In this document: positions 5,521-9,845 of the stretch, piece after piece
Numbering within the stretch: position 1 is the first letter of the stretch
Layout of the letters: every line of letters starts with the position of its first letter
Origin: a virus
Lineage: Duplodnaviria > Heunggongvirae > Uroviricota > Caudoviricetes
Virus record (IMG/VR): IMGVR_UViG_2563366870_000003
Reading direction: 5' to 3' (one strand)
Length of the DNA stretch: 48,200 nucleotides
The notes under the pieces: generated by a model
Databases searched by the model: none
What the model saw: only the letters and a program-made list of their open reading frames with translations
Told to the model about the DNA's origin: nothing
Made by a program: the position numbers and the translations under genes

Positions 5521-7490
<1,970 letters not shown>

Positions 7491-7656: not shown

Positions 7657-8337
7657 TCATCGCCATTGCTCCCCAAATACAAAACTAATTTCAGCCAGTG
7701 CCTCGTCCATTTTTTCGATGAACTCCGGCACCATCTCGTCAAAACTCGCCATGTACTTTTCATCCCGCTCAACCACGACATAATGCAGTCCTTCACGCTT
7801 CATACGCGGGTCATAGTTGGCAAAGTACCAGGCATCTTTTCGCGTCACCCACATGCTGTACTGCACCTGGGCCATGTAAGCCGATTTTATGGCCTCGAAA
7901 CCACCGAGCCGGAACTTCATGAAATCCCGGGAGGTAAACGGGCATTTCAGCTCAAGGCCGTTGCCGTCACTGCATAAACCATCGGGAGAGCAGGCGGTGC
8001 GCATACTTTCGTCGCGATAGATGATCGGGGATTCAGTAACATTCACGCCGGAAGTAAACTCAAACAGGGCTCTGGCGTCGTTCTCGTACTGTTTTCCCCA
8101 AGCCAGCGCCTTAGCGTTAACTTCCGGAGCCACACCGGTGCAAACCTCAGCAAGCAGGGTGTGGAAGTAGGACATTTTCATGTCAGGCCATTTCTTTCCG
8201 GAGCGGGGTTTTGCTATCACGTTGTGAACTTCTGAAGCGGTGATGACGCCGAGCCGTAATTTGTGCCATGCATCATCCCCCTGTTCGACAGCTCTCACGT
8301 CGATCCCGGTACGCTGCAGGATAATGTCCGGTGTCAT
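7657..8337 (-). CDS. exo: Lambda exonuclease (Red-alpha), 226 aa
   Basis: Sequence reads as near-identical to lambda Exo ([40 protein letters not shown]…) from memory; ATGA overlap with bet. Confidence 0.95.
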
Positions 8338-9119
8338 GCTGCCACCTTCTGCTCAGTGGCTTTCTGTTTCAGGAATCCAAGAGCTTTCACTGCTTCGGCC
8401 TGTGTCAGTTCTGACGATGCGCGAATGTCGCGGCGAAATATCTGGGAACAGAGCGGCAATAAGTCGTCATCCCATGTTTTATCCAGGGCGATCAGCAGAG
8501 TGTTAATCTCCTGCATGGTTTCATCGTTAACCGGAGTGATGTCGCGTTCCGGCTGACGTTCTGCAGTGTATGCGGTATTTTCGACAATGCGCTCGGCTTC
8601 ATCCTTGTCATAGATACCAGCAAATCCGAAGGCGAGACGGGCACACTGAATCATGGCTTTATGCCGTAACATCCGTTTGGGATGCGACTGCCACGGCCCC
8701 GTGATTTCTCTGCCTTCGCGGGTTTTGAATGGTTCGCGGCGGCATTCATCCATCCACTCGGTAACGCAGATCGGATGATTGCGGTCTTTGCGGTAAATCC
8801 GGCATGTACATGATTCATTGTCCTGCTCAAAGTCCATACCATCAAACTGCTGGTTTTCATTGATGATGCGGGACCAGCCATCAACGCCCACCACCGGAAC
8901 AATGCCGTTCTGCTTATCAGGGAAGGCGTAAATTTCTTTCGTCCACGGATTAAGGCCGTACTGGTTGGCGACGATCAACAATGCGATGAACTGCGCATCG
9001 CTGGCATCACCTTTAAATGCCGTCTGGCGAAGAGTGGTGATCAGTTCCTGTGGGTCGACAGAATCCATGCCGACACGTTCAGCCAGCTTCCCTGCCAGCG
9101 TTGCGAGTGCTGTACTCAT
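8334..9119 (-). CDS. bet: Lambda Bet single-strand annealing protein (Red-beta), 261 aa
   Basis: Reads as near-identical to lambda Bet ([37 protein letters not shown]…) from memory. Confidence 0.95.
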
Positions 9120-9124
9120 CCGTT

Positions 9125-9421
9125 TTATACCTCTGAATCAATATCAGCCTGATGGTGAGCAATGGTTTCAACTATGTACCGGATGTGTTCTGCCATGCGC
9201 TCCTGAAACTCAACATCGTCATCAAACGCACGGGTAATGGCTTTTTTGCTGGCCCCGTGGCGTTGTAAATGATCGATGCATAGCGATTCAAACAGGTGCT
9301 GGGGCAGGCCTTTTTCCATGTCGTCTGCCAGTTCTGCCTCTTTCTCTTCACGGGCGATCTGCTGGTAGTGACGCGCCCAGCTCTGAGCCTCAAGACGATC
9401 CTGAATGTAATAAGCGTTCAT
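9125..9421 (-). CDS. gam: Gam (RecBCD inhibitor), short 98-aa form
   Basis: [56 protein letters not shown]… matches lambda Gam residues 41-138; the N-terminal extension is in another frame (see findings). Confidence 0.9.
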
Positions 9422-9496
9422 GGCTGAACTCCTGAAAATGGCTGTGAAAATATCGCCCGCGAAATGCCAGGCTGATTAGGAAAACAGGAAAGGGGG

Positions 9497-9640
9497 TTAG
9501 TGAATGCTTTTGCTTGATCTCAGTTTCAGTATTAATATCCATTTTTTATAAGCGTCGACGGCCTCACGAAACATCTTTTCATCGCCAATAAAAGTGGCGA
9601 TAGTGAATTTAGTCTGGATAGCCATAATTGTTTGATCCAT
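9497..9640 (-). CDS. kil: Kil (host-killing / FtsZ inhibitor), 47 aa
   Basis: In-frame ATG at 9638-9640 inside the 89-aa track ORF gives [47 protein letters not shown]; overlaps cIII by 32 nt as in lambda. Confidence 0.7.
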
Positions 9641-9773
9641 TTTTTGGGACTCCTGGCTGATTAAGTATGTCGATAAGGCGTTTCCATCCGTCACGTAATT
9701 TACGGGTGATTCGTTCAAGTAAAGATTCGGAAGGGCAGCCAGCAACAGGCCACCCTGCAATGGCATATTGCAT
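9609..9773 (-). CDS. cIII: cIII (inhibitor of FtsH-mediated CII degradation), 54 aa
   Basis: Not in ORF track (<60 aa). Manual translation from ATG 9771-9773: [54 protein letters not shown]. Confidence 0.8.
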   Translation of the reverse strand: MQYAIAGWPVAGCPSESLLERITRKLRDGWKRLIDILNQPGVPKNGSNNYGYPD

Positions 9774-9845
9774 GGTGTGCTCCTTATTTATACATAACGA
9801 AAAACGCCTCGAGTGAAGCGTAATTGGTATGCGGTAACGCCGCGC

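Follow-up and report, generated by a model that had tools for sequence, protein, structure and literature searches.

The literature on lambda Gam treats the long form of the protein, GamL, as a real isoform and states that Gam "exists in two isoforms" (PMC5218532; PMC11610958). GamL is the product of the 138-codon gam of NC_001416, and the short form, GamS, corresponds to residues 41-138 of NP_040618 (PDB 2UUZ, 5MBV). Both GamL and GamS lower the quinolone MIC when expressed from a plasmid, and the solved RecBCD complex contains GamS (PMC5218532). In disc assays with K. pneumoniae GamL was sometimes slightly better than GamS (PMC5218532); a functional difference between the isoforms may therefore exist.

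The DNA analysed here, referred to throughout as the window, is a stretch of 48,200 nucleotides with the layout of a lambdoid genome in prophage order. In the neighbourhood of 9125-9421 the ORF listing gives cIII, kil, gam, bet and exo, all on the minus strand; this is the Red module of the leftward early (pL) operon, gam included. The gam gene (9125..9421, minus strand) is of the GamS type and encodes a 98-residue RecBCD inhibitor, a DNA mimic, recognised from its ORF, from Pfam PF06064 and from the solved GamS chains. Directly downstream lies bet (8334..9119, minus strand; 261 aa), and exo (7657..8337, minus strand; 226 aa) completes the module. On the other side are kil (9497..9640, minus strand; 47 aa), assigned from its ORF and the annotation of the identical segment of PhiR63_2, and cIII (9609..9773, minus strand; 54 aa), together with a cIII thermoregulator RNA at 9728-9786 (Rfam RF01804, 88.5 bits). 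The window as a whole (1-48200) is a mosaic; identity is 99.8% to ev017 and PhiR57_1 in the early (left) half, and in the late (structural) half it is 98.3% to PhiR47_2 and Perceval and around 96% to the lambda-like "ev" phages.

The Gam of the window is collinear with lambda GamS over all 98 residues, with 96% identity. The 4 residues of 98 that differ are conservative changes (I22L, A61S, I83M, A92V). The two genes also share the same Shine-Dalgarno sequence, start context and place between kil and bet-exo, and nothing of substance distinguishes them.

Sequence of the kil-gam junction

Read along the gene (minus) strand, the junction is CAGCCATTTTCAGGAG in the window and CAGCTA-TTTCAGGAG in lambda NC_001416; in the fuller alignment of the junction the window has CACAGCCATTTTCAGGAGTTCAGCCATG and lambda CACAGCTA-TTTCAGGAGTTCAGCCATG. 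Two differences are seen here. The first is a T-run longer by one nucleotide, T4 at 9435..9438 on the minus strand (A4 on the plus strand) against T3 in lambda; the second is an adjacent SNP at 9440 (minus strand), which is C in the window and T in lambda on the gene strand and is fully linked to the indel. The original prediction held that an extra T breaks the long form of gam and that only the 98-residue Gam remains in frame, and a nucleotide alignment with lambda gam had been set beforehand as its check. The T3 run of NC_001416 and the T4 run of the window bear it out, as do the ORFs and the NC_001416 translation. The lambda sequence given with the prediction proved right, as it matches both the 138-residue translation and the nucleotide alignment. 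The run had been placed at about 9435-9445, which is correct as to location but too long, since it ends at 9438.

One extra T and the linked SNP thus put the upstream ORF out of frame with gam, so that no 138-residue product can be encoded in the window. This ORF is indeed the N-terminus of lambda long Gam in another frame, as had been proposed, and it ends soon after the gam start, with its stop at 9390, 32 nt inside gam. The short Gam was said to be untouched and the 98-residue gene is intact.

Among 46 distinct spacer haplotypes every one is either CCATTTT or CTA-TTT; neither the C-T3 nor the T-T4 combination occurs. With only two haplotypes in existence, the difference is one old complex event. 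Repeated slippage within the T-run, or its phase variation, was considered and is ruled out by this strict two-haplotype pattern. Furthermore, identical GamS protein backgrounds carry T3 in some loci and T4 in others, a pattern that favours recombination over repeated mutation. Polarisation of the indel with outgroups gave no direction; the divergent leaders share only ATTTCAGGAG and are unalignable further upstream.

Frequency of the two alleles in nature

Queries of 36 nt were built so that any 28-nt megablast seed has to cross the T-run. Of 5,426 complete E. coli genomes, 2,236 contained the exact T4 36-mer, at 2,538 places in all; the exact T3 (lambda) 36-mer was found at 821 places in 782 of the same 5,426. 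A 36-mer within gamS, which takes in all lambda-type gam 5' ends, gave 3,710 places in complete E. coli genomes; relative to this total T4 accounts for around 68% of lambda-type gam loci, T3 for around 22% and other sequences for around 10%. Among phage records, 89 carry the T4 allele, EDL933-Stx, VT1-Sakai, Stx2-86, P27, ev017 and PhiR47_2 being examples, and 86 carry T3, including phage 21, HK630, VT2-Sakai and SfI, many of the T3 records being lambda and its laboratory derivatives. Phages ev017, PhiR57_1 and PhiR63_2 share with the window, at 100% identity, a 521-bp segment around the junction, and they have the same Gam sequence variant. The segment is found at 98.7-98.8% identity, gapless, in many Stx phages, and many Stx phages carry the T4 junction allele as the window does.

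These figures bear upon the possibility that the extra T is a homopolymer error of sequencing or assembly and that the true sequence is T3, as in lambda. The difference does sit in a mononucleotide run, but one of just 4 nt. Further, the identical 521-bp segment comes from independently sequenced phages, the T4 36-mer recurs throughout the complete genomes and phage records, and the same adjacent SNP always accompanies the indel, unlike what an error would produce. With independent assemblies and 2,236 genomes in agreement, such an error is excluded for practical purposes and its probability is negligible.

An allele-blind sample was taken from IMG/VR with a pattern on the Shine-Dalgarno sequence and gamS 5' end that is indifferent to the T-run; 119 of the 120 contigs obtained were informative. 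T4 was found in 84 of the 119 loci. The type seen in the window, T4 with kil upstream, was present in 26/119, and T4 with a different upstream gene in 56/119. T3 with an intact 40-codon in-frame extension was present in 31/119 and T3 with that other upstream gene in 2/119, while in a further 4/119 a C-run indel breaks the long frame too. GamL can thus be encoded in only 26% (31/119) of these loci. Most of the T3 loci of this sample come from sources other than laboratory lambda; the natural "IAMV" variant of GamS is present in 26 of 29, versus the "LSMV" of lambda.

It is clear that most natural kil-gam junctions carry the T4 allele, which is found in viable phages, and that the 138-codon ORF of lambda is a minority configuration. 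The term "frameshifted", used in the original prediction, is therefore correct relative to lambda, but its hint of a derived lesion or an error is not upheld, as T4 is the common state in nature and the short form is found family-wide. Since around three quarters of natural lambda-type gam loci, those of inducible Stx phages and plaque-forming coliphages included, are unable to encode GamL, the short form suffices in nature. Counting against a short-only view, early purifications of Gam reportedly gave a subunit of around 16.5 kDa, which is nearer to GamL.

Matches to non-enteric genome contigs were left out as evidence of distribution, many of them being lambda contamination. One group of these loci has lambda-type gam in assemblies of Shewanella, Pseudomonas, Neobacillus, Oceanobacillus, Kitasatospora, Leeuwenhoekiella and others; several of the contigs are around 48.4-48.5 kb and several have low coverage. 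These are almost certainly lambda DNA contamination.

The upstream reading frame and the spacer

The ORF left over upstream of gam (9390..9542, minus strand; 50 codons, 153 nt) starts from an ATG at 9542 inside kil and overlaps the last 46 nt of that gene; in lambda this ATG is the start of the annotated 138-residue gam. Apart from two substitutions, P25L and Y35H, the first 35 codons of the ORF specify the N-terminus of GamL. The gam frame itself is open for only 18 codons upstream of the 98-residue start and contains no ATG there, the ORF that begins MDIN being in another frame. The same architecture is found in Stx2 phage 86 (NC_008464; gp53A, gp53), where a 153-nt ORF overlaps a 297-nt gam on the T4 allele; the two sequences differ by a few SNPs, and the remnant ORF is recorded there as a CDS, "gam alternate". 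The configuration of the window is already known, being present and annotated in public records.

A continuous GamL frame requires three coincidences: kil upstream, as the source of an ATG without a Shine-Dalgarno sequence, a T3 run and a C5 run. The weakness of this ATG as a start is seen from the 20 nt preceding it, GCCGUCGACGCUUAUAAAAA, which have an anti-SD duplex energy of +0.4 kcal/mol. Nor is the ATG a constant feature of the locus. In around 57 of the 119 IMG/VR loci an unrelated gene takes the place of kil; its product ends in RGNGLNH and is termed "phage encoded cell division inhibitor protein" in PGAP naming. The mosaic breakpoint coincides exactly with the stop codon, CACTAA, so that the MDIN ATG is absent and the 75-nt leader stays with gam; altogether the ATG is missing from 56 of the 84 T4 loci.

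The kil-gam spacer (9422..9496, minus strand; 75 nt), which is the 5' leader of gam, therefore travels with gam where the upstream gene differs. Its polymorphism density is around twice that of gamS. For the spacer the GamL frame gives a pN/pS of 0.71, and the remaining frames give 0.67 and 1.49; the values are alike in the GamL frame and one other, and there is thus no frame-specific signal. A hand count on T3-only haplotypes gave 9 nonsynonymous and 6 synonymous changes, numbers so small that the extension may still be under weak constraint. A regulatory RNA within the spacer was also considered and rejected, there being no Rfam family match and an ordinary folding energy (z = -0.73).

It might be argued that the 50-codon ORF is a small-protein gene in its own right, as it is an open, ATG-initiated frame with a hydrophobic stretch and has been annotated once in public, in Stx2 phage 86. 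However, it has no Shine-Dalgarno sequence and no Pfam match, its start is lost wherever kil is replaced, its C-terminus differs between the T3 and T4 alleles, C-run indels shorten it in some relatives and the spacer lacks frame-specific constraint. A separate gene is highly improbable; most likely the ORF is not a gene and the sequence is untranslated leader.

A further possibility is that GamL is made from the T4 allele by programmed +1 frameshifting at CAU UUU CAG, where tRNA-Phe in the P site would move from UUU to UUC and translation would continue as AGG AGU UCA GCC AUG. Inspection of the sequence indicates that re-pairing of tRNA-Phe from UUU_C to UUC could occur, and the +1 frame runs directly into gam. 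This re-pairable P-site codon is a feature shared with +1 frameshifting of the prfB and Ty1 type; the slow A-site codon, the 5' stimulator and the conserved initiator of those systems are not. In the 0 frame the A-site codon would be CAG, a sense codon that is not rare, and the SD-like AGGAG is found on the 3' side of the shift site, whereas in prfB it is 5'. Furthermore, the ATG from which such a product would be initiated is the one without a Shine-Dalgarno sequence that most T4 loci lack, and gam goes unmentioned in a review of frameshifting. Programmed frameshifting at this site is accordingly extremely improbable.

The stop codon of kil (9497-9499) is itself polymorphic, being changed from TAA to TAC in some relatives, phage P27 among them (CACTACCCCCC). 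This change makes Kil 8 residues longer, extending it into the spacer, and the P27 annotation of kil is 165 nt rather than 144 nt. In a single IMG/VR locus of the classified sample the alternative upstream gene has no stop (CACTAC) and is followed by a T4 spacer; the loss of the stop with this spacer would take the upstream frame straight into gam, predicting a fusion ORF.

The 98-residue Gam, its family and its translation

Residues 1-98 of the window Gam match positions 1-98 of the 98 in the PF06064 model with a score of 211.7 bits (curated cut-off 25), and the solved GamS chains 5mbv_A and 2uuz_A are matched gaplessly, 1-98 on 1-98, with E=3.5e-60. In the annotated Gam of lambda the PF06064 match covers residues 41-138. 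A HMMER search of 1.84 billion cluster representatives returned 73 Gam relatives; the full-length divergent ones (34-60% identity) are all 95-101 residues and align from residue 1 of both sequences, and the 40-residue N-terminal extension was found in no divergent representative of this search. Closer homologues from Citrobacter, Klebsiella, Raoultella, Pseudescherichia and Escherichia sp. (69-75% amino acid identity) are 98 residues from the equivalent methionine; an in-frame upstream ATG is absent in all of them and an AGGAG-type Shine-Dalgarno sequence is present in most. A family of around 98 residues throughout means that the short form is the general, and probably the ancestral, gene and the long ORF of lambda the exception.

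The translation signals are consistent with this. The gam AGGAG (9429..9433, minus strand) lies 7 nt before the ATG at 9421 and has an anti-SD duplex energy of -6.9 kcal/mol; the values elsewhere in the operon are -6.9 for kil, -7.1 for bet, -7.3 for exo and -8.5 kcal/mol for cIII. The AGGAG motif is retained in most of the gam loci examined, and in most of the divergent homologues among them. Even on the T3 allele PGAP calls a 297-nt gam, in an O157:H7 prophage, and the record of phage 21, also T3, has a 98-residue "RecBCD inhibitor" annotated with a ribosome binding site.

Among distinct haplotypes the variants of gamS comprise 29 synonymous and 34 nonsynonymous changes, giving a pN/pS of around 0.29; gamS is intact and under purifying selection. 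This result must be set beside the proposal that the extra T is a derived +1 frameshift by which a degenerating prophage lost a functional long Gam. The two IS elements of the window would fit such a history, as they make it probably a resident prophage with some decay, and the polarity of the indel fits either direction. Against it, the allele is not private to the window but is that of the majority and occurs in plaque-forming phages (ev017, PhiR63_2, PhiR47_2, Stx phages), the 98-residue gene is maintained by selection and the extension that would have been lost is present in no divergent member of the family. Decay of this kind is very unlikely.

The locus is very probably an ordinary, functional GamS-type gam on the common T4 junction allele of a wild lambdoid E. 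coli prophage or phage, encoding the 98-residue Gam only. The protein would be translated from its own AGGAG and ATG, and gam is expected to be expressed together with the rest of the leftward early operon, cIII-kil-gam-bet-exo. Given the 96% identity to GamS and the known complex (PMC5218532), it can be expected to bind RecBCD and to block the binding of DNA ends by this enzyme. By homology to the solved GamS structures, a Gam dimer would mimic a DNA end and plug the DNA-binding channel of RecBCD, and the block to RecBCD would protect linear and rolling-circle phage DNA and allow Red recombination. We infer that this phage needs no more than GamS for full Gam function and that little translation starts at the upstream ATG.

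Two more far-reaching readings of the T3/T4 difference may be put forward: that it is a maintained switch of a real second isoform, or that the 138-residue gam of lambda is an accidental fusion never meaningfully translated. These are unlikely. Were there a switch, T3 phages would make both GamL and GamS and T4 phages GamS only, and the isoforms would differ in potency, in stability or in their visibility to defences that sense RecBCD inhibition or Gam. Were the fusion accidental, the statement that Gam has two isoforms would be a product of cloning constructs and not of phage biology. For the preferred reading, an ordinary GamS-type gene, no new mechanism or gene is involved; the population view, in which the 138-codon ORF of lambda is a minority, lineage-specific state, is mildly useful and matters modestly. 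In a search of the literature no paper was found on the T3/T4 polymorphism, or on the 138-codon ORF as a minority configuration. In practice, annotation of lambdoid genomes should call the 98-residue gam start, and the locus should not be flagged as a pseudogene or a frameshift.

Two insertion sequences are present in the window. Directly downstream of exo is an IS21-family ORF for an istA-like transposase (6318-7490, minus strand; 390 aa). An IS3-family element (14757-15970, plus strand) lies between the immunity region and an O-like replication gene (16277..); it consists of orfA (14757..15083, plus strand) and orfB (15080..15970, plus strand) and contains an ALIL frameshift pseudoknot at 15038-15154 (Rfam RF01497, 120 bits). 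Together the two elements probably explain why roughly 19% of window 1-25000 has no counterpart in ev017 and PhiR57_1, its closest phages, and their insertion suggests a resident prophage.
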